A DNA stretch of 64,000 nt from positions 3,757-67,756 of the forward strand of contig JAHFNC010000004.1 in the NCBI GenBank assembly GCA_023267535.1, read 5' to 3'. Below are positions 1,184-38,420 of the stretch, piece by piece. Each line of letters begins with the position of its first letter. The stretch's first letter is position 1. The notes under the pieces are model-generated. The model did no database searches and had not been told where the DNA came from. It saw nothing but the letters and a program-made list of their open reading frames with translations. The position numbers and the translations under genes were made by a program. Source of the stretch: a bacterium (GTDB lineage: Bacteria > Patescibacteriota > Minisyncoccia > Phycocordibacterales > UBA5272).

Positions 1184-2650
1184 ATGAGTAAATTTATGTT
1201 TGAACAAACTTTTAAGAATATAGACGACATCTTACATAAAGATGCAGGATGCGGAAGTGAGCTTGATTATGTTGAACAAACCTCATGGGTACTATTTTTG
1301 AAGTACCTCGATGATTTAGAGAAAGACAAGAAAACAGCGGCTGAACTTGCAGGAAAAAAGTACACCAACATCATATCTACTGAATACAGTTGGACTACGT
1401 GGGCTACACCAAAAGGTAAAGACGGAAAACTTGATCATCATAAAGCCTTAACTGGAGATGATTTAAAAGACTTTGTTGATCTTAAACTTTTTCCTTATCT
1501 TAAGAAATTTAAAACCACAGCTTTAAGTCCAGATACTATTGAATACAAGATTGGTGAGATTTTTTCTGAATTAAAAAATAGAATTCATAGTGGATATAAC
1601 TTACGTGAAGTTATTAATCGTATAGACGAGCTTCGTTTTCGTACTCATGCAGAAAAGCATGAAATGAGCCACTTGTATGAATCTAAAATACAGAACATGG
1701 GGAATGCTGGTCGTAATGGTGGTGAGTACTATACTCCAAGACCACTTATTACTACTATTGTTAAAGTGGTAGCTCCAAAAATTGGAGACACTATTTATGA
1801 TGGTGCAGTAGGTAGTGCAGGATTCTTATGTGAAGCTTTTGATTACCTAAAGAAGAGTAAAAACCTTACAACGAAAGATGTAGAAATTTTACAAAAGAAA
1901 ACTTTTTATGGAAAGGAAAAGAAATCATTAGCATATATTATCGGTACAATGAATATGATTTTACACGGTGTAGAAGCTCCTAATATTATCCATACCAACA
2001 CTCTTGCTGAAAATCTTGCAGATATACAAGAAAAAGATCGTTATAATGTTGTGTTGGCAAACCCACCATTTGGAGGAAAAGAACGAGTAGAGGTACAGCA
2101 GAACTTTCCAATTAAAACAGGAGAAACTGCTTCTCTTTTCTTACAACACTTTATTAAGATATTAAAAGCAGGAGGTAAAGGCGGTGTGGTTATAAAAAAT
2201 ACATTTCTTAGTAATACAGATAACGCTACGGTTAGTTTAAGAAAGTTACTTCTTGAGAATTGTAACCTACATACAGTATTAGACTTACCTGCTGGAACTT
2301 TTACAGGTGCCGGTGTCAAAACAGTCGTACTCTTTTTTGAAAAAGGGTCCTCTACGAAAAAAGTATGGTTCTATCAACTTAACTTAGACAGAAATCTCGG
2401 TAAAACAAATTCACTTAGCGAGAAAGATTTAGAAGATTTTATTAAACTTCAAAAGAATAAAGCAGAAAGTGAAAACTCTTGGAGTATAGATATAAAAAAC
2501 ATAGACCAAAAGACTTTTGATTTAAGTGCAAAGAACCCTAACAAAAAAGAAGAGGTTGCTTTGCGTTCCCCAGAAGAGATTTTGAAAGAGATGAAAGCTT
2601 TAGATAAGGAGAGTGAAAAGATATTAAGCGGTATTATTAAATTGATATGA
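1184..2650 (+). CDS. hsdM: Type I restriction-modification system, N6-adenine DNA methyltransferase subunit M
   Basis: 488 aa. HsdM N-terminal region, SAM-binding 'YDGAVGSAGFL', catalytic 'NPPFGG'. First gene of an M-X-S-R array. Confidence 0.95.
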   Translation: MSKFMFEQTFKNIDDILHKDAGCGSELDYVEQTSWVLFLKYLDDLEKDKKTAAELAGKKYTNIISTEYSWTTWATPKGKDGKLDHHKALTGDDLKDFVDLKLFPYLKKFKTTALSPDTIEYKIGEIFSELKNRIHSGYNLREVINRIDELRFRTHAEKHEMSHLYESKIQNMGNAGRNGGEYYTPRPLITTIVKVVAPKIGDTIYDGAVGSAGFLCEAFDYLKKSKNLTTKDVEILQKKTFYGKEKKSLAYIIGTMNMILHGVEAPNIIHTNTLAENLADIQEKDRYNVVLANPPFGGKERVEVQQNFPIKTGETASLFLQHFIKILKAGGKGGVVIKNTFLSNTDNATVSLRKLLLENCNLHTVLDLPAGTFTGAGVKTVVLFFEKGSSTKKVWFYQLNLDRNLGKTNSLSEKDLEDFIKLQKNKAESENSWSIDIKNIDQKTFDLSAKNPNKKEEVALRSPEEILKEMKALDKESEKILSGIIKLI

Positions 2651-3714
2651 ATGAAAAAAAAGAAGTAAAACATATTTTTATAGATTCGAATATTTTTTTA
2701 GATTTTTATAGATTAGGGAAAGAAGATTTAGAGAAACTTAATCAGTTGATTGACTTTGTTAAAAATGGTGATATTAAAATATATTTAACAAAACAGGTCT
2801 ACGATGAATTTTACAGACACAGAGAAGACACCTTTCAAAAAACATACAAAGGTTTTTTAGACTCAAAAACTGATATTCAGATGAATTCTATTTTTAAGAA
2901 TTATCCAGAATATAAAAAGATTACTCTTTTGAAAAAAGCTTTAGAGAAACTTAAGTCTGACTTAGGTCAAAAAGTAGAAAGTGACATGAGTTCAAAAAGT
3001 TTAATTGCGGATGAGGTTGTGAGAAAAATATTTGAAGCCTCTTTTTATATTGATTCGGATAAGTTTTTAGAAATGGCGATTATAAGACACAGACTTGGAA
3101 ATCCACCAGGTAAAAAAAATACTAGTTATGGAGATGAAATCAACTGGGAAACATTACTAAGTGTGGTTCCTGACGGAGAAAAACTAATAATAGTTAGTAA
3201 CGATGGAGATTACGAAAGTCCAATGTCAGAAAGAAAAATCAACGGCTATTTGGAAGCTGAATGGGATAAAAAAAAGAAATCAAAAATCTATTTATACAAG
3301 TCCCTAAGTTCATTTTTTAGAGAACACAACATTGCTATTGAGTTTGAAATTGAACAAGATAAAAGTTTACTTGTAGAAAATTTGATAAACAGTGGTAGTT
3401 TTATGGTAACTCACGAAGTTATAAGAAGGCTTTCAAAGTATAATTCATTTTCAGACGACCAAATAAAAGGTCTTGCTACAGCTTTACTAGGTAACTCGCA
3501 AGTACGGTCAATTATAGAAGATGATGATGTTAGAACTTTTTATAAAATAAACTTACTGTCTAGGTCTGATATTTTTGACGATGAAATGTGGAGTGAGATA
3601 GAGTCTCTTATTATAGTTAACCCAGTTCAGGTTAATAAAGATATTGAGGATATTATTAAAAGTCTTGATGATAAAATTGATGAAGATATCAATGTGGACG
3701 ACATTCCATTTTAA
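2647..3714 (+). CDS. PIN-like (DUF4935-type) putative nuclease embedded in the type I R-M operon
   Basis: 355 aa. ATG 2647-2649 overlaps the hsdM TGA 2648-2650. 'IFIDSNIFLDF', 'VYDEF', 'GNPPGKKNTSYGDEINWETLL' and 'IIVSNDGDY' give the acidic-residue pattern of PIN-like domains. The C-terminal ~150 aa are unassigned. Only 3 nt separate it from hsdS. Confidence 0.65.
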   Translation: MNEKKEVKHIFIDSNIFLDFYRLGKEDLEKLNQLIDFVKNGDIKIYLTKQVYDEFYRHREDTFQKTYKGFLDSKTDIQMNSIFKNYPEYKKITLLKKALEKLKSDLGQKVESDMSSKSLIADEVVRKIFEASFYIDSDKFLEMAIIRHRLGNPPGKKNTSYGDEINWETLLSVVPDGEKLIIVSNDGDYESPMSERKINGYLEAEWDKKKKSKIYLYKSLSSFFREHNIAIEFEIEQDKSLLVENLINSGSFMVTHEVIRRLSKYNSFSDDQIKGLATALLGNSQVRSIIEDDDVRTFYKINLLSRSDIFDDEMWSEIESLIIVNPVQVNKDIEDIIKSLDDKIDEDINVDDIPF

Positions 3715-3717
3715 TTT

Positions 3718-4839
3718 ATGAAAAAAGAAAACTGGGAAATAAAAAGTTTTGAAGAATGTCTTGAAAAAGTTGTTTATACAAACAAAATTCAAAGAAAAGA
3801 TTTTCTTGATAATGGAAAGCATCCAGTAATTTCACAAGAGAAAGATTTTGTTAATGGGTACTGGGATAATTCTAAAGATTTATTTAAGGTTAGAAAACCA
3901 GTTATAATTTTTGGTGATCATACACAAGTCTTAAAATATGTAGATTTTGATTTTGTTCTTGGTGCTGATGGTGTAAAAATACTTCAGCCTACAAGTGAGC
4001 TAGAACCAAGATTTTTTTACTATTATTTACAAAACATAAATATTGGTAGTTTAGGATACGCAAGACATTACAGATTATTAAAAGAGAGTGAAGTAGAATT
4101 TCCAAAGTCTCTTTTAGAACAGCAACGCATAGTGTCAGTTTTAGATAAAGCATTCGTTGATATATCTAAAGCAAAAGATATTGCTGAACAGAATCTTAAA
4201 AATGCAAAAGAACTTTTTGAAAGTTATTTACAGAGTATGTTTACAAATAAAGGAGATGATTGGGAAGAGAAAACATTAGGCGGTATTGCTTTTGTAAAAA
4301 GTGGAGGAACTCCTTCAAGGTCTAAAAAAGAATACTGGACAGGTAAAATAGCTTGGTATTCGTCGGGTGAATTAAATAATTTGTACACCACAACGCCAGA
4401 AAGATATATTAACGATTTAGCAATTAGTAACTCAAATGCAAAAATCTTTCCAAAAGGTTCTCTTTTAATAGGTATGTATGATACTGCGGCTCTAAAAATG
4501 TCTATATTAGACAGAGACGGTTCTTTTAATCAAGCTATTGCAGGTGTAAAACCTAATGACAAAATTGACTTAACTTTTATTTTACACTCTATCAACTCTA
4601 TCAAACCAGAATTACTTAATTTAAGACGTGGTGTTCGTCAGAAAAATCTAAGTCTTGAAAAGATAAAAAGTATCCCTACCTATGTTCCTCCACTTCAAGT
4701 ACAGAAGAATGTTGTTTCTAAATTAGGAGAACTTTCCACTGAAACAAAAAAACTTGAAGCAATCTATGAACAAAAATTAAATGACTTAGAAGAACTTAAG
4801 AAAAGTATTCTTCAAAAGGTATTTAACGGCGAACTATAA
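3718..4839 (+). CDS. hsdS: Type I restriction-modification system, specificity subunit S
   Basis: 373 aa. Two target-recognition halves, each followed by a conserved helical spacer ('LLEQQRIVSVLDKAF...' and 'LQVQKNVVSKLGEL...'). Confidence 0.9.
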   Translation: MKKENWEIKSFEECLEKVVYTNKIQRKDFLDNGKHPVISQEKDFVNGYWDNSKDLFKVRKPVIIFGDHTQVLKYVDFDFVLGADGVKILQPTSELEPRFFYYYLQNINIGSLGYARHYRLLKESEVEFPKSLLEQQRIVSVLDKAFVDISKAKDIAEQNLKNAKELFESYLQSMFTNKGDDWEEKTLGGIAFVKSGGTPSRSKKEYWTGKIAWYSSGELNNLYTTTPERYINDLAISNSNAKIFPKGSLLIGMYDTAALKMSILDRDGSFNQAIAGVKPNDKIDLTFILHSINSIKPELLNLRRGVRQKNLSLEKIKSIPTYVPPLQVQKNVVSKLGELSTETKKLEAIYEQKLNDLEELKKSILQKVFNGEL

Positions 4840-4860
4840 AAGTGCTATAATGTCAAGATT

Positions 4861-7182
4861 ATGAACGAATCTGAAACAAGGGCAGAGCTAATTGATCCAA
4901 AGCTAAAAGCTTGTGGTTGGGGTGTTGTTGAAGGATCTAAAATACTCCGTGAATACAATATTACTGCTGGTAAAATCCAAACTGGAGGTATAAGAGGAAA
5001 GCTACTTACTGCTGATTATGTATTGGTCTACAAAGGCATAAAATTGGCTGTGGTTGAGGCAAAGAGTGCAAATATAGGAGTTGGTGAGGGTGTTGCACAA
5101 GCCAAGCAATATGCAGAGAAACTAAAAATAGAAACAACCTATTCTACAAACGGAAAAGAGATATACAGTATCTGTATGAAAACTGGTGTTGAGGGTTTGG
5201 TTTCTGGTTATCTCTCACCTGATGAACTTTGGAACAAAACTTTTTCGGTTCAAAATGAATGGAGAGAGAAATTTAGTTCTATTCCTTTTGAAGATAAGAG
5301 TGGCTCTTGGCAATTACGTTATTATCAAGAAATAGCAGTAAAGAATGTTCTTGAATATGTTGCAAATGATAGGGACCGCATTTTGCTCACCTTAGCTACT
5401 GGTACAGGTAAAACAGCTATCGCTTTTCAGATAGTATGGAAACTATTTCAGACAAGATGGAATTTAAAACGTGACGGTTCTCGTCGTCCTCGTATTTTAT
5501 TTTTAGCAGATAGAAACATATTAGCCGACCAAGCATACAACTCTTTTTCTTCATTTCCAGAAGATGCTTTGGTGCGTATTAATCCTAAAGAAATAAGTAA
5601 GAAAGGAAGTGTGCCTACTAATGGGTCTATTTTCTTTACTATCTTTCAAACCTTTATGAGTGGTAAAGATGCCGAGGGAAACCCTGCACCATACTTCGGA
5701 GAATATCCATCTGATTACTTTGATTTTATTATTATAGACGAATGTCATCGTGGCGGTGCAAACGATGAAGGAAACTGGAGAGGTATCTTGGAATATTTTT
5801 CTCCTGCTGTGCAATTAGGTTTAACAGCTACCCCAAAGCGTAAAGATAATGTCGATACATATAAATATTTTGGTGAGCCAGTATATATTTATTCTCTTAA
5901 AGAGGGTATTAATGATGGATTTCTTACACCTTTTAAGGTTAAGCGTATTAAGACAACATTAGACGATTATATTTATACAAGTGATGACCAAATCATCGAA
6001 GGGGAAATCGAGGAAGGAAAACTTTATACCGAACCTGATTTTAATAAGATAATTGAAATTAAAGCGAGAGAAGAAAAGCGTGTGAAGGTATTTATGGACG
6101 AAGCAAATCAAAATGAAAAAGCTATTGTCTTTTGTGCTACTCAAGATCATGCGGCTGCGGTTCGTGATTTAATTAATCAATACAAGAAAAGTGCTGATCC
6201 AAATTATTGTGTCCGTGTTACAGCAAATGATGGAGAGATAGGCGAACAATTTTTAAGAGAATTCCAAGATAACGAAAAAACTATACCAACTATTTTAACG
6301 ACATCACAGAAACTTTCAACTGGAGTAGATGCTAGAAATATACGTAACATTGTACTCATGCGACCAGTGAACTCTATGATTGAATTTAAGCAAATTGTAG
6401 GGCGTGGTACACGTTTATTTGATGGTAAGGAATTCTTTACTATTTATGACTTTGTGGATGCTTATCACCATTTTGCGGATCCTGAATGGGATGGAGAACC
6501 GATCAGTCCAGTAGATGATGAACCTACGGAACCTAAACCACCAAAAGGGGTAGAGGGTGAACCACCTTTTCCTCCAGAACCACCAACAGAACCAAATAAG
6601 AAACTTAAGATTAAATTACGAGATGGAAAAGAACGTGAAATACAACACATGATAGCAACTTCTTTTTGGGGTGCAGACGGTAAACCTATTTCTGTGGAAG
6701 AGTTTTTACAAAACCTGTTTGGGACACTGCCTAGTCTTTTTAAGGGTGAAGAAGAGTTGCGAGAGATATGGAGTAATCCAATAACAAGAAAAAGTTTGTT
6801 AGAAAAACTAGACGAGGCTGGGTATGGAAAAGACGAACTAACTACATTACAGAAATTAATTGACGCTGAAAATAGTGATCTTTTTGATGTGTTGGAATAT
6901 GTATTTAATAGTGACGTTAAACCGATACCAAGAGAGATAAGAGTAGAAACATCACAGGAAACTATTTTTGAATCCCTTAATGATAAACAAAAAGAATTTA
7001 TTGAATTTGTGTTGAGTAAATATATTGAAACAGGTGTAGAAGAATTAGACCAAGAGAAACTACCAATACTTCTTACTAATAAATATCAGTCGCTAGAAGA
7101 TGCAAAAGATACACTAGGTGATATTGATTTGATTCGTTCGATTTTCTTCAAATTCCAAGAGAAACTATACGCAAAAGTATAA
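4861..7182 (+). CDS. hsdR: Type I restriction enzyme, R (helicase/endonuclease) subunit, EcoEI-R-like
   Basis: 773 aa. N-terminal 'SETRAELIDPKL..GW' region. SF2 motifs 'LATGTGKT', 'IIIDECHRG', 'LGLTATP', 'QIVGRGTR'. Pro-rich linker, then a C-terminal domain resembling the EcoEI R C-terminus ('DLFDVLEYVF...'). Confidence 0.93.
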   Translation: MNESETRAELIDPKLKACGWGVVEGSKILREYNITAGKIQTGGIRGKLLTADYVLVYKGIKLAVVEAKSANIGVGEGVAQAKQYAEKLKIETTYSTNGKEIYSICMKTGVEGLVSGYLSPDELWNKTFSVQNEWREKFSSIPFEDKSGSWQLRYYQEIAVKNVLEYVANDRDRILLTLATGTGKTAIAFQIVWKLFQTRWNLKRDGSRRPRILFLADRNILADQAYNSFSSFPEDALVRINPKEISKKGSVPTNGSIFFTIFQTFMSGKDAEGNPAPYFGEYPSDYFDFIIIDECHRGGANDEGNWRGILEYFSPAVQLGLTATPKRKDNVDTYKYFGEPVYIYSLKEGINDGFLTPFKVKRIKTTLDDYIYTSDDQIIEGEIEEGKLYTEPDFNKIIEIKAREEKRVKVFMDEANQNEKAIVFCATQDHAAAVRDLINQYKKSADPNYCVRVTANDGEIGEQFLREFQDNEKTIPTILTTSQKLSTGVDARNIRNIVLMRPVNSMIEFKQIVGRGTRLFDGKEFFTIYDFVDAYHHFADPEWDGEPISPVDDEPTEPKPPKGVEGEPPFPPEPPTEPNKKLKIKLRDGKEREIQHMIATSFWGADGKPISVEEFLQNLFGTLPSLFKGEEELREIWSNPITRKSLLEKLDEAGYGKDELTTLQKLIDAENSDLFDVLEYVFNSDVKPIPREIRVETSQETIFESLNDKQKEFIEFVLSKYIETGVEELDQEKLPILLTNKYQSLEDAKDTLGDIDLIRSIFFKFQEKLYAKV

Positions 7183-7200
7183 TTTTTCTTACTCAAAAAG

Positions 7201-9744
7201 TTAGATCATTCTTTTCTTTATGTTTCGTACAAGATCAGTGATTTCTTTCTTTGCAATATCAGGGATTTTAAATATAGAAACATCAGTTTTTAATAACCAT
7301 TCGGCACATTCCTTTCTATCATAATCCATACTTTCAATGTGGTTAGAAATTTCAATGGCTGTATGTCTACTTAGTCCGAGATTGATAAGAGAAACTTGGG
7401 TCCTTTCAAATACCCCAAACTCGAGCCACATATTTAAATCAGGGACGGAATCAAGAAACTCAGGGTGATTCATACTAAGATAATACTTTAAAATATCAAT
7501 ATAACATGAAGAATACTTTGCAAATTTAAACCTAACATATTCTTCTATATCCCCCATTGTGTTTCTGATAATTAGTGAAAGCTTTTTCTTGGGATCTCTA
7601 TTCTCCCAGTACCTAATATTAGACTTTATTATTCTAGCAAGTGGATATCCTCTCATCCAATTAGTTACTAGAATGGTGTAGTAAGGTGCGAGCGCTTCGT
7701 GGTCCCCAGAAAGAATTCTACTTATTCTTTTTATAATTGCTATGTAGCAATTAGACGCATCTAAATCGTCAGGTAAAACAGGAATTAGGTTTTTTATGTC
7801 ATCATCATAATTTACAAAATAATCAAAGAGTTTTTGTTGAGATATGGGGTTTATACCGGGATTTCTAAAAATTATATCATCTGGTATTTGAAGTGACTCT
7901 TTTACTTTTGAACACTCTACCTCAAGTTCATTAATGAAATCTTCGTCAAGAGGTTCATTTTTTAAGGAAGAGTTTTTAAGGAATTTTGTGAAATAATAAC
8001 TAAAAGCATATTCATGGTTAGAGCTAGAAGTTTCTTTAAAGTTACCTCTTATGTATTCAAGAAGATCAGTTTTATTTTCTGAAGCTTCAGTGATTGCTCT
8101 CTTAATAAAGTGCTTTGTTTTTTCTCTGATAGGTATATTATCCCAATCTTCAGGATCAATACATATAATATTTCCTTGAAATTCCTTTTTTAGGCGACCA
8201 GCTCGACCAGCGAGATTCCAAAAATCAGCTCCTGACATCGGTACTTTATTTCCTCTTTTTGGTTTTCTTATAAAAATTGATTTTGCTGGAAGGTTAACTC
8301 CTTCGAGAAGGGTTGAAGTACATACTAAGTATTTAATATGACCCTCAGAATATAATCTTTCAATTTCTTTTCTAATAACAAGTGGCATGTTGCCGTAATG
8401 AAAAGCAATCTTTCTTTCTAGAACTTTAGCTAAAGCATATTCTGGATGAATTAATTTCTTTATTAAATCAATCAATTCATTTATTTGATCATCTTCTGTT
8501 TCCTCTTTAGTTCCGACAAGATCAAAAAGTTTTTCTGAAGCATCTTCAGCATCTGCTTGTCCATTTACATATATCATGTTGCCACCTTCATTTGAACCAA
8601 GTAAGTAGCAAAAAGTAGACAGTTTTTCTTTTTCGTTTAAAGTTTGATTTAAGTTAATTTGCCCCAGTGGAGTAGATATATTTTTTAGACATAGGTTTAC
8701 GCTCCACTGCTTAGGGTGCCCCACTAATTGTGATACCCAAATTAAATTTTGATTTACGGCAATATATTCAGTAACTATAGTAGACCTATCTTCCTGGTTA
8801 CCTAAGCCATCCAGTAGAACCCCAGGGTTTTGAGAGAATGGACTACAGAATAGTATTTTTATGGCTGGTAGTCGAGTTGTAAGCTCTTCAATTTTTTGTT
8901 GTAAAAGAATACCTCTACCACCATCTCCAATTTTTTGAGCTTCGTCAATGACAAGAAAATCAATCTTAAAAGTGGGATTGTCACTTAGAAACCAATGTAA
9001 TCTTTCTTGCGTAAATATAAATAGAGATGGTTTGTTTAAGTCCATTTCATCAGGTGACTGAGGTACAGAACTTAGGTAAACAGAATAGTCTTCCTTATTA
9101 AACAATTGATCAGAAAAATCTTGCTCTACTTGATTGATAAGTGCTCTGGTAGGGACTATGTAGACAATATTTTTTGGATTCTTTTTGTCGTTTAGTTGCT
9201 CTAAAACAAAAGTATTTAGAATAAATGATTTTCCAGAAGAGGTTGGAGCAGAAGCACTTAAATAGTTTGAACTGTATGCTTTATCGTAAAAGTCTTTTTG
9301 AAATTTATTAAGATATATTGGCTCTTCATTTGTTTTTGTAAAAATGATATGTTCCACATCTCTTCTTGCATTTTCAATTTTAAAAGGTAACGGTATATCA
9401 TTATCGTAATCTGAAGGTAGATATTTCTTATGGATAGCAAGATTAATAGCTGGTTTGTTTGTTAACTTATGCAAAATGATAGATGCTCCAATTCTTTGGT
9501 TCTTCTTTGTTTCTGCATCTGTTAAACAACACTGGGCAATCCTTAATGCTGCATCTTGACAATCTGGGTTATCTGAATGTGATATTATACTTGCACACAT
9601 TAATAAATGATCCCAGTTTGGTATGTAAAATAAGTCAGATTGTTGATTTAAAATTGGGAAAAGTTTTATTACCGAATTTCTAATAATAGATAATAGGTCT
9701 TGTTGAAAGCTTTTTAAGTTATAAACTTTTTCAGGAAGGGTCAT
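7201..9744 (-). CDS. hamB: HamB-like SF2 (DEAQ-box) helicase, Hachiman-type defence
   Basis: 847 aa. Walker A 'SAPTSSGKSF', 'LVIDEAQK', 'CTSTLLEGVNLPA', 'LAGRAGR'. Its start overlaps the upstream DUF1837-like gene by 14 nt. Confidence 0.8.
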   Translation of the reverse strand: MTLPEKVYNLKSFQQDLLSIIRNSVIKLFPILNQQSDLFYIPNWDHLLMCASIISHSDNPDCQDAALRIAQCCLTDAETKKNQRIGASIILHKLTNKPAINLAIHKKYLPSDYDNDIPLPFKIENARRDVEHIIFTKTNEEPIYLNKFQKDFYDKAYSSNYLSASAPTSSGKSFILNTFVLEQLNDKKNPKNIVYIVPTRALINQVEQDFSDQLFNKEDYSVYLSSVPQSPDEMDLNKPSLFIFTQERLHWFLSDNPTFKIDFLVIDEAQKIGDGGRGILLQQKIEELTTRLPAIKILFCSPFSQNPGVLLDGLGNQEDRSTIVTEYIAVNQNLIWVSQLVGHPKQWSVNLCLKNISTPLGQINLNQTLNEKEKLSTFCYLLGSNEGGNMIYVNGQADAEDASEKLFDLVGTKEETEDDQINELIDLIKKLIHPEYALAKVLERKIAFHYGNMPLVIRKEIERLYSEGHIKYLVCTSTLLEGVNLPAKSIFIRKPKRGNKVPMSGADFWNLAGRAGRLKKEFQGNIICIDPEDWDNIPIREKTKHFIKRAITEASENKTDLLEYIRGNFKETSSSNHEYAFSYYFTKFLKNSSLKNEPLDEDFINELEVECSKVKESLQIPDDIIFRNPGINPISQQKLFDYFVNYDDDIKNLIPVLPDDLDASNCYIAIIKRISRILSGDHEALAPYYTILVTNWMRGYPLARIIKSNIRYWENRDPKKKLSLIIRNTMGDIEEYVRFKFAKYSSCYIDILKYYLSMNHPEFLDSVPDLNMWLEFGVFERTQVSLINLGLSRHTAIEISNHIESMDYDRKECAEWLLKTDVSIFKIPDIAKKEITDLVRNIKKRMI

Positions 9745-10714
9745 AGGTTATCCCAAGTGCCTCCAAGAAGTGCTTTCTAAACTCTTCCACAGAAGGAAAT
9801 GGAAGCAGAAAAACATGTATATCAAAAGTTTCAAGATTTGTATGTTTTGAAATATGTTTGACAACATTTTTTGACCAACCTTCTATTTCTTTGTTAATCT
9901 TTTCTTTTATTTGTTCAGTGGTTTCTGTGTTTGCAACGCTTGGGTATTTATCATAATCAAATCCAATGAGGCACACACCTTTATACCTTACCTGATTATG
10001 GAGAGGGTCGTCTTTGTCCAAATATTTTAATAGAGCAACTTCCAATCTCTCATCTATTACACTCAAGTTGTCCCTCATTAATTGTAAGTCTCTTTCTGCT
10101 GGAGCAGATATTCCTCCATCTGATAAAAGAAACTCTTTAAGACTTATGAAACATTTAGAGATGCCATCGTTTAAATCTTTGTACAGTTTTGATTCACCCC
10201 AATATAAAGATAGAATATCCCTTCCTTCTTCATTTAACTCCACAGAAACATGAATACCATCAGCTCCGTTCACATGGAGTTCTGGGTTTGTTTTTAATGG
10301 CATCTTACATAGTAGTTGGGGAATTTTTAGATACTCCTGAATAAGAATATAGAGAAGCATTTCACCACCTTCACCTGTCTTCTTTAGTGAAGTAAAAAGA
10401 CTTTTTGCTTTTTCAATAAGCTCGTAAGTTTTTGTGGTTGTGTTATGTTTTGTATCATATTCTTTTGCCACCTCATATTCTTTTCTTGGAATTGCATAAT
10501 CAGCTACATGCTTTGCCACAAAACGTGCAAAGTCCTTAGTGCGAGGTCTACCATTTCCGTCTAAAGTTAAAAAGTAACAATGTGAGGTTGCTTTAGTATC
10601 TTTTAAATTAACATTTGATATAACTTCAGTTATATAAGTATTTATTTCTTGTTTGCTTGTTCTCAGAAGATCAGCAATAAGTTCTGCAATATTATCTTGG
10701 TTAGCAGTAGTCAT
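9731..10714 (-). CDS. hamA: DUF1837 / HamA-like PD-(D/E)xK nuclease, Hachiman-type defence
   Basis: 327 aa. 'GEGGEMLLYIL' and 'NGADGIHV...(21 aa)...YWGESKLY' (D152...E174-x-K176), as I recall for DUF1837. Coupled to the helicase gene. Confidence 0.72.
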   Translation of the reverse strand: MTTANQDNIAELIADLLRTSKQEINTYITEVISNVNLKDTKATSHCYFLTLDGNGRPRTKDFARFVAKHVADYAIPRKEYEVAKEYDTKHNTTTKTYELIEKAKSLFTSLKKTGEGGEMLLYILIQEYLKIPQLLCKMPLKTNPELHVNGADGIHVSVELNEEGRDILSLYWGESKLYKDLNDGISKCFISLKEFLLSDGGISAPAERDLQLMRDNLSVIDERLEVALLKYLDKDDPLHNQVRYKGVCLIGFDYDKYPSVANTETTEQIKEKINKEIEGWSKNVVKHISKHTNLETFDIHVFLLPFPSVEEFRKHFLEALGITYDPS

Positions 10715-19486: not shown

Positions 19487-19564
19487 ATTTGAGAATTATA
19501 ACATTTATTAGAATATACATATTATGATGAAAAGCTGCTATAATCCAAACAATAAATTATTGTA

Positions 19565-20269
19565 ATGAAGAAAATTCAAGACGACATAATTAGCTACAGA
19601 GAGATGTGTGATATAGAAAATGTTCAAACACTTCAGCGTGGAATGAATTTTCGTATGAACCAAAAATACTCCGTCATATTAATGTCCCAAAGATCAAACG
19701 CTCCATATATTGATAAGGTTCATGCGGATGGTTTAACTATTGAATATGAGGGACACGACGTCTCCAGAATTACAAATGAGCCCGCCTATAATCCAAAGCA
19801 ATATGATCAATCAGAGAAATTACCGAGCGGGAAATTAACACAAAATGGATTTTTTATAAAAGCTGTAAAAGAATTTAAAAAAAGTATGGCTAATCCAGAG
19901 CTTGTTAAAATTTATGAAAAAGTTTTTCCTGGTGTTTGGTCTTTGAAAGGCTATTTTGATCTCATTGATTACAGAAATGTTAGAGATGAAAAAAGAAATG
20001 TGTTTCGCTTTATTCTGAAATTATCAAATCGTCAAGAAAATTATGATTCAAAGGTTGCGAAAATTGAACACACAAGATTGATTCCGTCAGAAGTAAAAAG
20101 AGAGGTTTGGAAACGAGATGATGGAAAGTGTGTTATTTGTGGAGATACAAAAAATTTACACTTTGACCACGATCTTCCTTTTTCAAAAGGGGGCACAAGT
20201 TTATCAACAAAAAATGTGCGCTTACTTTGTATGAGACATAATCTTCAAAAATCAGATAAGATAATTTAG
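19565..20269 (+). CDS. HNH endonuclease with N-terminal SRA/YDG-like domain (candidate type IV modification-dependent restriction enzyme)
   Basis: The C-terminal HNH is clear: 'CVICGDTKNLHFDHDLPFSKGG...NVRLLCMRHNLQKSD'. The N-terminal 'LQRGMNF...SVILMS...APYIDKVHADGLTIEYEGHD...VKIYEKV..GVWSLKGYFDLIDY' resembles SRA-type base-flipping domains. Confidence 0.6.
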   Translation: MKKIQDDIISYREMCDIENVQTLQRGMNFRMNQKYSVILMSQRSNAPYIDKVHADGLTIEYEGHDVSRITNEPAYNPKQYDQSEKLPSGKLTQNGFFIKAVKEFKKSMANPELVKIYEKVFPGVWSLKGYFDLIDYRNVRDEKRNVFRFILKLSNRQENYDSKVAKIEHTRLIPSEVKREVWKRDDGKCVICGDTKNLHFDHDLPFSKGGTSLSTKNVRLLCMRHNLQKSDKII

Positions 20270-20278
20270 TATTTCTAC

Positions 20279-20325
20279 TTATCCACAGTTGTTCTATTGC
20301 AGTAGAACAATCGTTCTAATATACT
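20279..20325 (+). promoter_or_regulatory. lexA promoter with SOS box and upstream DnaA-box-like element
   Basis: TTGCAG (20297-20302), 17 nt, TATACT (20320-20325). The spacer holds TAGAAC-AATC-GTTCTA (20303-20318), a GAAC-N4-GTTC box. Second palindrome TTGTTCTA-N6-TAGAACAA at 20289-20310. TTATCCACA at 20279-20287. Confidence 0.6.
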
Positions 20326-20331
20326 GAATTG

Positions 20332-20895
20332 ATGAATGAGGAAGAAATTTTAATATCATTTTTTACGGAAAATAAAAGAATGCCAACATACGAAGAGATG
20401 AAAGGTCTCTTCGGTGTGGCTTCAAAAAACACTGTGGCTTTCAGAGTAAATAAATTATTAGAAAATGGTTTCTTGATTAAGAAAGGAAGTAAAATTGCTC
20501 TTGCTCAATCTGGCTCAGTTGTGAGATTGGGAACTGTTCAAGCTGGATTTCCAACTACTGCAGACGAAGATGTCGTATCCGAGTTATTATCACTTGATGA
20601 TTTTTTAATAGAAAGAAAGAGTTCAACATATATGTTGGAAGTGGTTGGTGAATCAATGAAAGATGCCGGAATAATTGAAGGCGACTTGGTTTTAGTAGAA
20701 AGAGGAAAGACTCCACGTCGTGGAGATATAGTTCTAGCACTTGTTGATAATGAATACACGCTGAAATATTTAGAAACAGAAAAAGGAAAACCAGTGCTTG
20801 TGCCAGCCAATAAATTATTTAAGAAAATCTATCCAAACCCAAACAAATTAAAAATCGAAGCAGTTTTAAAAGCAGTAATTAGAAAATATAGATAA
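20332..20895 (+). CDS. lexA: LexA repressor (S24 peptidase)
   Basis: wHTH N-terminus, cleavage-site region 'VQAGFP', catalytic Ser context 'VVGESMKDAG' and Lys context 'EYTLKYL'. Confidence 0.9.
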   Translation: MNEEEILISFFTENKRMPTYEEMKGLFGVASKNTVAFRVNKLLENGFLIKKGSKIALAQSGSVVRLGTVQAGFPTTADEDVVSELLSLDDFLIERKSSTYMLEVVGESMKDAGIIEGDLVLVERGKTPRRGDIVLALVDNEYTLKYLETEKGKPVLVPANKLFKKIYPNPNKLKIEAVLKAVIRKYR

Positions 20896-20899
20896 ACAT

Positions 20900-21477
20900 A
20901 TGAAATTATTTAACATCACAATTACAATACAGAGCTCCATAAAAAACGACGAGCCAGTTTACAAAAATGAACTAATAAGTAGACACATTAATTTCGCTTC
21001 AAAACTTACTCAACTTTCTAGATTATAAATAACTATTTCAAATATATGTCACCATCACCACGCGCCATAATACAAATAAGCACAACAGGAAAGAATTTTT
21101 CTCGTATAAATTATAGTCGTCGCATGTATGCCGTCATTAGACGTTATACACCGGACGTGGCTGAGGGTAATATAAATGAATGCTTTGCTGATATAACCGG
21201 ACTTCGCACTTTCTTTAAAATGTCATACAAAGAATTGGCAGAAAAAATTCTTAAAGATTTAAATAAAGAAATTGGTGTGCAATTTACAATCAGAATTACT
21301 TCAATGAAAGCCTTTCAAAATGCAAAAACTAACAGTAGAAACTCCAAGAGTATTTCTACTTACAAAGAATTAAACAAACTTTTTGCCGGACTATCATTTG
21401 TTGAAGCCAAAAATCGTAAAAGCTTAATTAGTAGAAGAAGAAAATTTGCCGTACCATTTATTGGTAAGGTTGCATAA
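20900..21477 (+). pseudogene. decayed Y-family DNA polymerase (DinB/UmuC-like) relic
   Basis: Two frames. 20900-21028: 'LFNITITIQSSIKNDEPVYKNE', compare '..IDMD.FFASVE....P.L.gk'. 21046-21477: 'YSRRMYAVIRRYTPDVAEGNINECFADITGL', compare 'Y...S..i..i...yt..vE..SiDEafLDvTg'. Has a frameshift, internal deletions, a missing thumb/little finger, and substituted catalytic acids. Confidence 0.65.
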
Positions 21478-21483
21478 TTATTT

Positions 21484-22026
21484 TTGGTCGTGAAAGAGAT
21501 AAGCTATAAATTAAAAATTAGTAAAAAATCCAAAAGATTAAAACTTGCTGTCTATCATGACGGTACTGTTTTGGTTACTGTTCCCAGAGGTGTAACTAAA
21601 GAAATTGTTAAGAGTTTTGTGTTAAGTAAATATAAATGGATTACTAAAAAAGTAGAATTTTTTAAAAAGTATCCAGCTAGAGCACTGCCTAAAAATAATA
21701 AGAAAGCTTTTGAAGAAAATAAAGAGGTGGCTTACAAGATTGCTATTGAAAGACTAGAGCATTTTAATAAGTTCTATAAATTGAAATGGAATAACATAAC
21801 CATAAAGAATACAAAAACCCGCTGGGGAAGTTGTTCAAGAAAAGGAAATTTAAATTTTAATTACAAAATAGCACTACTTTCTCCAAAGCTTAGAGATTAC
21901 ATAATCGTTCATGAGCTTTGCCATTTAGGAGAATTCAACCACTCGCAAAAGTTTTGGACATTAGTTTCAAAAACTATTCCAAATTATTTAGAGTTAAAAA
22001 AGGAACTAAAAATAAATATTTTTTAA
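21484..22026 (+). CDS. YgjP-like (DUF45/M48-related) zinc metalloprotease
   Basis: 'RWGSCSRKGNLNFNYKI' and 'HELCHLGEFNHSQKFW' (HExxH). Confidence 0.85.
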   Translation: MVVKEISYKLKISKKSKRLKLAVYHDGTVLVTVPRGVTKEIVKSFVLSKYKWITKKVEFFKKYPARALPKNNKKAFEENKEVAYKIAIERLEHFNKFYKLKWNNITIKNTKTRWGSCSRKGNLNFNYKIALLSPKLRDYIIVHELCHLGEFNHSQKFWTLVSKTIPNYLELKKELKINIF

Positions 22027-37418: not shown

Positions 37419-38420
37419 ATGTCTAATTCATCTAATAAAAAAGTTCTAGTTTCTGGTATAAAACCAACTGGCCGACTTCACTTCGGAAATTATTTTGGAG
37501 CAATGAAGCAGAATATAGAACTTGGAAATAGTGGTGAATACGAAAGCTATGTATTCATTGCTGACTATCATGCTTTAACAACAGTTAAAAATGGTGATGA
37601 ATTGAGAAAACAAACTATTGAGGCGGTGGCCTCATATCTTGCTTGTGGTCTTGATACAACTAAAGTTATTTTATTTAAGCAATCAGATGTCAGAGAAGTG
37701 ACCGAACTTACTTGGATATTTAATAACTTGGTAACGGTTCCTTACATGATGAGAGCTCACGCTTTCAAAGACCAAGAAGCTAGAAGTAAAGATGTTAATG
37801 TTGGATTATTTGATTATCCAGTTCTAATGGCATCAGATATTTTAATTTATGATGCTGATATTGTGCCGGTTGGAGCGGACCAAAAGCAACATATTGAATA
37901 CGCTCGTGACATCGCTGGGTATTATAACCGTGCCTATAACATTGAAGAATTTAAATTACCAAAAGAATTAATAATGGCCGGAGTAGAAAATGTTCCTGGT
38001 ATTGATGGACAAAAAATGAGTAAGAGTTATAACAATCATATTGAACTTTTTTGCTCTGATGATGAATTAAAAAAGAGAGTTATGAGTATTGTTACAGATA
38101 GCGCCACACCTGAAGACAAAAAGAATCCCGATGAAAATAATATTTACAAAATTCATAAACTTTTTTTGAATAAAGAAGCAGATGAGGTGTTGCGTTCTAA
38201 ATTTTCAAATGGCGGATACAGTTACAAGGAAGCTAAAGAAGAATTACTAGCAACAATAATGAAATGGAGAGAAGGGAAGCTAGAAAAATATAATCACCTT
38301 GTGGATAACTTTTCAGAATTAAATTCACTACTTGAGAAGAATGGAGGGGTTGCTTGCGAAAAAGCAAAAATTAAAATGGAGAAAATTAGAAAAACAGTAG
38401 GATTAACAAATACTTTTTAG
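37419..38420 (+). CDS. trpS: tryptophan--tRNA ligase
   Basis: HIGH-type 'TGRLHFGNYFG', 'GADQKQH' and 'KMSKS'. Confidence 0.93.
   Translation: MSNSSNKKVLVSGIKPTGRLHFGNYFGAMKQNIELGNSGEYESYVFIADYHALTTVKNGDELRKQTIEAVASYLACGLDTTKVILFKQSDVREVTELTWIFNNLVTVPYMMRAHAFKDQEARSKDVNVGLFDYPVLMASDILIYDADIVPVGADQKQHIEYARDIAGYYNRAYNIEEFKLPKELIMAGVENVPGIDGQKMSKSYNNHIELFCSDDELKKRVMSIVTDSATPEDKKNPDENNIYKIHKLFLNKEADEVLRSKFSNGGYSYKEAKEELLATIMKWREGKLEKYNHLVDNFSELNSLLEKNGGVACEKAKIKMEKIRKTVGLTNTF

Follow-up and report, generated by a model that had tools for sequence, protein, structure and literature searches.

Restriction endonucleases that join an SRA (SET and RING associated, PUA-superfamily) domain to an HNH nuclease are an established class of type IV, or modification-dependent, enzymes, so that finding one more is in itself ordinary; among those described are TagI (PDB 6GHS) and the group of ScoA3IV (Sco5333) and TbiR51I (Tbis1). 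How an SRA domain handles a modified cytosine has been described for plant SUVH5: Gln392 enters via the minor groove and takes the flipped base's place opposite the orphan guanine, with which it pairs; Tyr416 and Tyr428 stack on the flipped 5-methylcytosine (5mC) or 5-hydroxymethylcytosine (5hmC); and the thumb-loop backbone at Gly394 contacts the 5hmC hydroxyl (PMC4740795, which also gives the roles of D418 and of T429-G430-Q431-G432). The equivalent TagI residues are Gln35, Tyr55, Asp58, and Tyr67, and the thumb residue is likewise Gln in Sco5333 and Tbis1. Here we describe an SRA-HNH gene on contig JAHFNC010000004.1 of a member of the Patescibacteria; below, "the window" means the whole 64-kb stretch of this contig that was analyzed. 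The gene likely encodes a solitary, nucleoside triphosphate-independent type IV restriction endonuclease, with a substrate and a mode of cleavage that we predict from its residues and its relatives.

Independent assemblies of the same organism call the identical protein, in an unchanged arrangement. The first-pass annotation of this DNA, made from the letters alone, had suggested an SRA-like N-terminal domain followed by an HNH nuclease; all the motifs it quoted are present in the translation of the open reading frame (ORF), and each of their residues falls within the 84 columns that are invariant among 30 close homologs. Domain libraries scarcely register the single protein. Pfam places HNH (PF01844; 20.3 bits, gathering threshold 21.4 bits) and HNH_5 (PF14279; 21.4 bits, threshold 27.5 bits) at residues 189 to 232, both slightly below threshold, and finds no match for the first 170 residues, SAD_SRA (PF02182) included, even at E ≤ 10. 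Matches in NCBIfam and PADLOC scans are confined to the HNH region (residues 164 to 232 for PADLOC REase_II), and PDB sequence searches with the single protein or with a shallow alignment (A1) gave weak HNH matches and no SRA. Given this near invisibility, a simple scan could not have confirmed the SRA proposal.

Relatives of the protein and its modeled structure do reveal the SRA domain. An exhaustive HMMER search with residues 1 to 170 gave 718 clusters (50% identity) at E ≤ 1e-3, of which 342 reached E ≤ 1e-10, and all close homologs fell into one cluster at that identity; relatives at 37 to 50% identity retain the layout of N-domain plus HNH. SAD_SRA matches 16 of 42 diverse relatives (best E, 1.5e-7; sub-threshold in the cases inspected) in alignments that span nearly the whole model (about positions 25 to 148 of 148), PF18491 SRA matches 2 of the 42, and the AspBHI N-terminal domain matches 1; the family consensus reaches 21.4 bits against SAD_SRA (E = 2.3e-4), under the gathering threshold of 30.7 bits. 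A profile of these 42 members (alignment A3) matched the SRA domain of Arabidopsis SUVH5 (3Q0B) at E = 1.2e-4 over profile positions 21 to 153. With the diverse alignment, AlphaFold2 returned a model with a predicted local distance difference test score (pLDDT) of 86.6 and a predicted template modeling score of 0.77; a first run on the 30 close homologs (pLDDT, 64.8) was excluded from fold searches. All 33 Foldseek matches of the model to PDB entries at E ≤ 0.001 are SRA-containing proteins, among them SUVH6, SUVH4, and SUVH5 (TM-score 0.65-0.70, target-normalised), SUVH9, MspJI, ScoMcrA, UHRF1, and LpnPI, with UHRF2 slightly past that cut-off. The N-terminal domain thus models as an SRA fold and not as an unrelated one, and together with the SAD_SRA matches in relatives and the SUVH5 profile match this bears out the initial suggestion. 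Recognizable elements of the domain are helix 11-17, the thumb loop, strands 36-41 and 58-62, helix 93-105, and long beta-hairpins at 112-153; in the linker that follows, pLDDT falls below 50 at residues 163 to 168. An SRA-like domain occurs in other fusions as well, some of them possibly produced by gene calling: P0201 has a D12-class N6-adenine DNA methyltransferase before an SRA-like domain and lacks HNH, P0194 has a PemK/MazF toxin domain before the N-domain and HNH, and P0127 has an HIT domain before SRA and HNH.

Alignment with SUVH5 (construct residues 362 to 528, in which chain positions convert directly to residue numbers) pairs Q24-R25-G26 with SUVH5 Q392-S393-G394, pairs Y48, D50, and Y61 with Y416, D418, and Y428, and sets residues 62 to 65 against T429-G430-Q431-G432. 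Q24, G26, Y48, D50, and Y61 are invariant in close homologs and conserved at 81 to 95% in the diverse set: Q24 is kept in 30 of 30 and 34 of 42, respectively, and counts among the 42 are 40 for G26, 39 for Y48, 38 for D50, and 39 for Y61, with G63 in all 42 and H64 in 41. Some neighboring positions carry near-invariant, clade-specific swaps relative to SUVH5: R/K25 for Ser393, E62 for Thr429, H64 for Gln431, and D65 for Gly432. Past the finger-loop region (residues 66 to 80), a segment that starts at D81-Q82 aligns with SUVH5 KDQQLVTGNLALKNS; its residues Q82 and N94 are invariant (42 of 42), and this conservation suggests a functional role for D81-N94.

In the HNH domain, the invariant residues C189, C192, C222, and H225 make up a structural CCCH zinc site, and the predicted active site reads D201-H202 ... 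N217 ... N226, with D201 and N226 as putative metal ligands, H202 as the general base, and N217 as the structural Asn. By the scheme of Han et al., the domain falls into the "DN" type, together with AnaCas9, Gme, and T4 endonuclease VII, and its zinc finger is of the CCCH kind seen in KpnI and Cflav. In TagI, by contrast, Ala precedes the catalytic His, the last metal ligand is a His, there is an extra Asp258, and the zinc site is CCCD; the nuclease described here is therefore intact and of an HNH subtype other than TagI's. Across the diverse set, HNH models in Pfam match 26 of 42 relatives (best E, 1.3e-11), and the family consensus scores 33.4 bits. The HNH domain had at first been called unambiguous; its presence and its intact residues stand, but for the single sequence, which scores below both Pfam thresholds, that word is too strong.

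From these residues a mechanism can be proposed. The SRA domain would scan duplex DNA and flip out a cytosine modified at C5 (5mC and/or 5hmC); the thumb-loop residue Gln24 is predicted to occupy the vacated position and to pair with the guanine left behind. Tyr48 and Tyr61 would form the walls between which the flipped base stacks, and the Asp50 carboxylate would read the Watson-Crick edge of that base, thereby selecting cytosine. The tethered HNH domain, stabilized by its CCCH zinc and using His202 with a metal on Asp201/Asn226, would nick or cut DNA in the vicinity, probably as a TagI-like dimer and probably with Mn2+ or Mg2+, as in TagI and the ScoA3IV group; such an enzyme could act against phages or plasmids. 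The host would be safe because its own methylation is of other chemistry: type I N6-methyladenine (m6A) in the window and products of N4-cytosine-type methyltransferases in other carriers.

The gene belongs to a large and widespread clade. A database search yielded about 8,000 clusters (90% identity) of full-length homologs that are 70 to 84% identical to the window protein; few of them are named, and the labels are "HNH endonuclease," "Restriction endonuclease," or hypothetical protein only. In a scan of species-representative genomes, SRA-HNH proteins at 53 to 78% identity occurred in many Patescibacteria lineages, as well as on Acidobacteriota and Omnitrophota chromosomes and in Alpha-, Gamma-, and Deltaproteobacteria, Zixibacteria, Chloroflexota, and Elusimicrobia. 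The metagenome-assembled genome CAZPYM01 has two copies on different contigs (loci L051 and L054). Two short contigs binned as archaeal (L050 and L058; Thermoplasmatota and Woesearchaeota) carry copies at 64 to 68% identity; either mis-binning or an interdomain transfer could account for them. No full-length homolog was found in 50,697 phage or 72,556 plasmid records, which gave HNH-domain matches only, and 2.9 million IMG/VR viral contigs held no relative.

Mean identity to the window gene at codon positions 1, 2, and 3 is 0.75, 0.82, and 0.46; synonymous sites are thus near saturation in genes whose proteins remain 60 to 78% identical, a sign that the genes diverged long ago and under strong purifying selection instead of spreading in a recent sweep. 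The SRA-HNH protein of locus L020 is 72% identical to that of the window, compared with 60% for the universal GTPase YchF. Guanine-plus-cytosine (GC) content of the gene follows that of its locus (r = 0.76 across loci) and falls short of it in high-GC hosts: where the host has 52 to 62% GC (L043, L078, L083, L024, and L003), the SRA-HNH gene has 37 to 45%, for example 0.39 against 0.57 in the surroundings at L078 and 0.45 against 0.62 at L043. This pattern suggests horizontal import from low-GC donors, followed by partial amelioration.

Within the window, the ORF list and Pfam place the gene where it had first been noted, beside recR, directly upstream of a LexA-like gene, and outside the main island, which is a defence island at the left end of the window (1184-10714) made up of a type I restriction-modification system and Hachiman. 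The local order is rmuC, L21, a small ORF, recR (on the minus strand), SRA-HNH, the S24 LexA-like gene, an IMS fragment, a YgjP-like gene, and ychF (Table 1); SRA-HNH starts 78 nt from the divergent recR and ends 59 nt upstream of the S24 gene. Promoter-like sites are fewer than in shuffled sequence, and the candidate in the recR gap is suggestive only. The sole GAAC-N4-GTTC site in the window, TAGAACAATCGTTCTA, falls after the SRA-HNH stop codon and before the start of lexA, so this box belongs to lexA; there is no such box upstream of the SRA-HNH gene. Downstream of SRA-HNH, positions 20303-22026 form an SOS-type module of LexA box, lexA, IMS fragment, and YgjP-like gene; the 143-aa ORF within it is probably a truncated remnant, given how little of the IMS profile it matches. 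A test for recent acquisition by base composition gave no signal at this locus, where the gene (GC, 0.33) equals the window (0.34). Of DNA methyltransferases, the window shows only the type I HsdM (N6-adenine), and no C5-methyltransferase signature was found in the 64 kb; an "ENVPGI" at 37986, considered as C5-methyltransferase motif VI, belongs to the ORF of a class I (Trp/Tyr-type) tRNA synthetase.

Table 1. Features of the SRA-HNH gene and of the surrounding window (window coordinates)
Feature	Position	Strand	Remarks
Type I restriction-modification (R-M) system	1184-7182		HsdM 1184-2650, HsdS 3718-4839, HsdR 4861-7182
PIN_12-domain gene	2647-3714		inserted between hsdM and hsdS
Hachiman	7201-10714	-	DEAD/ResIII helicase 7201-9744, HamA 9731-10714
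Weak sigma-70-like promoter candidate	19498..19525	+	9/12 consensus; inside the 78-nt recR/SRA-HNH gap
SRA-HNH gene, complete	19565..20269	+	234 aa plus stop codon, ATG start; from the ORF list
SRA domain	19565..20029	+	residues 1 to about 155
Predicted thumb (base-flipping promotion) loop	19616..19669	+	residues 18-35; L-Q24-R25-G26-M-N-F
Predicted flipped-base pocket	19706..19759	+	residues 48-65; Y48-I-D50-KVHADGLTIE-Y61-E62-G63-H64-D65
Conserved segment D81-Q82 ... G89 .. T92-x-N94-G95	19805..19849	+	runs into helix 93-105; defined by conservation
Linker, variable, low-confidence	20030..20086	+	residues 156-174; least conserved stretch in alignments A1 and A3
HNH (beta-beta-alpha-Me) nuclease domain	20087..20266	+	residues 175-234
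GAAC-N4-GTTC Cheo-type LexA box	20303..20318	.	16-nt palindrome TAGAACAATCGTTCTA, directly upstream of lexA
lexA, LexA-like S24 protein	20329-20895		Peptidase_S24, E=3.6e-24
143-aa ORF	21046-21477		matches only positions 74-136 of the IMS (Y-family polymerase) profile
YgjP-like metallopeptidase	21484-22026

To compare this setting with others, neighbors of SRA-HNH were clustered across 83 non-redundant loci (1,170 ORFs) from the species-representative genome scan. None of the other loci has recR near SRA-HNH, and one has lexA, about 5 kb off; relatives at 76 to 78% identity have either a GmrSD_N (DUF262) gene in front of them, with dnaX nearby, or gatB and gap as flanking genes. Because the recR/lexA linkage is missing elsewhere, the SOS neighborhood in the window is incidental. 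At several Patescibacteria loci (L001, L086, L009, L025, and L078), SRA-HNH has dnaX, the gene for DNA polymerase III gamma/tau, no more than three genes away. recR is usually part of a dnaX-ybaB-recR cluster; the dnaX/recR vicinity may be a preferred insertion region, or its recurrence may be a coincidence.

Some neighborhoods recur as cassettes in which SRA-HNH is always the last gene, on the same strand, often with an overlap of 4 to 8 nt or a gap of 2 to 3 nt. Cassette A, at about 20 loci (for example, L004 at 3595-6699; also L007, L012, L017, L020, L036, L038, and L046), consists of three overlapping genes. The first is MazG-like (about 115 aa); the second encodes 620 to 800 aa, with a GIY-YIG-like N terminus, an SLFN-g3/DUF2075 helicase core, and a LexA-like S24 peptidase at the C terminus; the third is SRA-HNH. 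The helicase gives weak PADLOC matches to Nhi and PDC-S14, and the cassette may be an undescribed defence system. Cassette B, at about 11 loci (L054 at 6449-8684; also, among others, L022, L028, L050, L060, L063, L069, L070, and L077; gaps of 2 to 3 nt), places SRA-HNH after an SPPY-motif N6_N4 methyltransferase and a restriction endonuclease of the MvaI/BcnI family; it amounts to a type II R-M system paired with a type IV enzyme. We also considered a type II label for SRA-HNH itself, as given by PADLOC REase_II and by the NCBI name of one homolog, and rejected it: no methyltransferase adjoins the gene in the window, and the methyltransferases that adjoin it elsewhere are already paired with the MvaI/BcnI-family enzyme. 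In cassette C, at four loci, SRA-HNH follows a DpnI-like gene (Dam-replacing family, PF06044) that overlaps its start by 4 nt in three of the four (L009, L011, and L016) and lies 9 nt upstream in L006, so that two putative modification-dependent nucleases stand side by side. Fic, PD-(D/E)XK, and HEPN AbiU2 genes were also seen adjoining SRA-HNH. Most loci lack the MazG/helicase-S24 cassette, and some copies stand alone among housekeeping genes.

None of the 1,170 ORFs of these 83 loci contains C5-methyltransferase motifs, and 13 encode methyltransferases with an SPPY/F motif. This motif marks N4-cytosine methyltransferases. Such a combination would be expected if the enzyme attacked C5-modified cytosine but left N4-methylcytosine and m6A alone. 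It has been published that PUA-superfamily nucleases are usually not adjacent to methyltransferases, and the present loci agree.

At the level of architecture, the folds, residues, and genomic context support the SRA-HNH modification-dependent enzyme first proposed for this gene. Several points weigh against that assignment. The window protein has no direct SAD_SRA match, and the family consensus stays sub-threshold. With Mg2+, Sco5333 cut methylated and unmethylated DNA alike, so that SRA-HNH architecture is no guarantee of strict modification dependence. By analogy with HHPV4I, in which the SRA domain is inactive and m6A specificity resides in a winged-helix domain, an SRA domain may also be vestigial; the location of that specificity led us to reject HHPV4I as a precedent for an m6A-reading SRA. 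The three-gene cassette found in about a quarter of loci means that the enzyme could depend on partners missing from this locus. Finally, the swaps at positions 25, 62, 64, and 65 could mean that the preferred modification differs from that of the textbook 5mC readers. The nuclease might then read a base other than 5mC or 5hmC, such as a phage hypermodification that is bulkier or charged, an oxidised cytosine, or a modified uracil, by an unchanged mechanism. We consider this unlikely, if worth keeping in view: the swapped residues fall at pocket-lining positions of SUVH5, T68-G71 just after the second Tyr of TagI decides whether glucosyl-5hmC fits, and the clade is divergent enough to score under Pfam thresholds; however, the cytosine-edge-reading Asp and both stacking tyrosines are kept, all characterized SRA nucleases read C5-modified cytosines, and the nearness of R25, E62, H64, and D65 to the 5-substituent is itself suggested by alignment. 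A broader proposal, which we advance tentatively, is that the genes make up a large, ultra-conserved, unrecognized clade whose remodeled pocket may read another modification and whose members may serve as a plug-in "last gene" that confers restriction of modified DNA on at least three unrelated kinds of upstream module: an N4-methylcytosine R-M pair, a DpnI-like enzyme, and the MazG/helicase-S24 pair. If true, epigenetic tools would gain a new specificity, and the gene would mark a MazG/helicase-S24/SRA-HNH defence system that has yet to be described.

Cassette A raises the question of whether SRA-HNH is the effector of a partner-dependent system, with the window copy an orphan of reduced or different activity. 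Its position directly after the SLFN-g3 helicase-S24 gene (MazG-like before) in about 20 of 83 loci, often overlapping by 4 to 8 nt, and the weak resemblance of that helicase to Nhi and PDC-S14 would fit; yet SRA-HNH also follows type II R-M pairs, DpnI-like, or GmrSD genes or stands alone, most loci have no such cassette, purifying selection is equally strong on solitary copies, and characterized SRA-HNH enzymes work alone. We therefore regard partner dependence as improbable. Even less can be said for an SOS or recombination-repair nuclease tied to recR and lexA, which we think very unlikely. The gene does have recR and lexA on either side, with a Y-family polymerase fragment next in line; S24 domains recur beside the family; and the toxicity of ScoA3IV in RecA-deficient hosts shows that SRA-HNH damage interacts with recombination repair. 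Against this stand the absence of the recR/lexA linkage at the other loci, the different placement of the relatives at 76 to 78% identity, the position of the sole LexA box downstream of the gene with none upstream, and pocket residues that suit the reading of a modified base, not of a lesion. Least credible of all is a selfish, free-standing HNH homing endonuclease. Such an element would explain both conservation and cross-phylum spread, and insertion sites are indeed variable, the 53 to 78% identity does cross phyla, and gene GC does lie under that of high-GC hosts; but the phage, plasmid, and IMG/VR collections lack full-length copies, the gene does not lie within introns, inteins, or phage genes, near-saturated synonymous sites make the spread ancient with no ongoing homing sweep, and in place of a sequence-specific homing DNA-binding domain the protein has an SRA base-flipping module at its N terminus.

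A type IV assignment for this clade has several implications. Because standard databases do not recognize it as SRA and its homologs bear uninformative names, domain-architecture screens would probably miss thousands of its genes. SRA-HNH is one of the few recognizable defence functions that recur in the reduced genomes of Patescibacteria, and its higher conservation relative to YchF between the same genomes points to sustained pressure from invaders with modified DNA. Because it is compact (234 aa), has a remodeled pocket, and is closest to plant SUVH SRA domains, the enzyme might serve as a reagent to map cytosine modifications, and it bears on the proposal that eukaryotic SRA domains came from bacteria.

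Among known systems, the plant SRA domains of SUVH5, SUVH4, and SUVH6 (3Q0B, 4QEN, and 6A5K) belong to eukaryotic chromatin readers fused to SET histone methyltransferases, with no HNH; the SUVH residues S393, T429, Q431, and G432 are replaced in the window protein. ScoMcrA (SBD-SRA-HNH; 5ZMM/5ZMN) exceeds 500 aa and carries an extra sulfur-binding domain (SBD) for phosphorothioate DNA that the window protein lacks. The MspJI/AspBHI/LpnPI and PvuRts1I/AbaSI families have a PD-(D/E)XK nuclease instead of HNH and act as tetramers that cut at fixed distances, with the domain order reversed in PvuRts1I and AbaSI. VcaM4I/TspA15I (EVE-HNH) and EcoKMcrA use an EVE domain or the N-terminal domain of McrA, in place of SRA, as their sensor. 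The closest systems are TagI and the ScoA3IV/TbiR51I group of SRA-HNH type IV enzymes. Although sequence homology to the characterized members TagI and Sco5333 is not detectable and the HNH subtype is not shared, the architecture and the pocket residues are: the window protein belongs to a divergent, separate clade of the known SRA-HNH kind.
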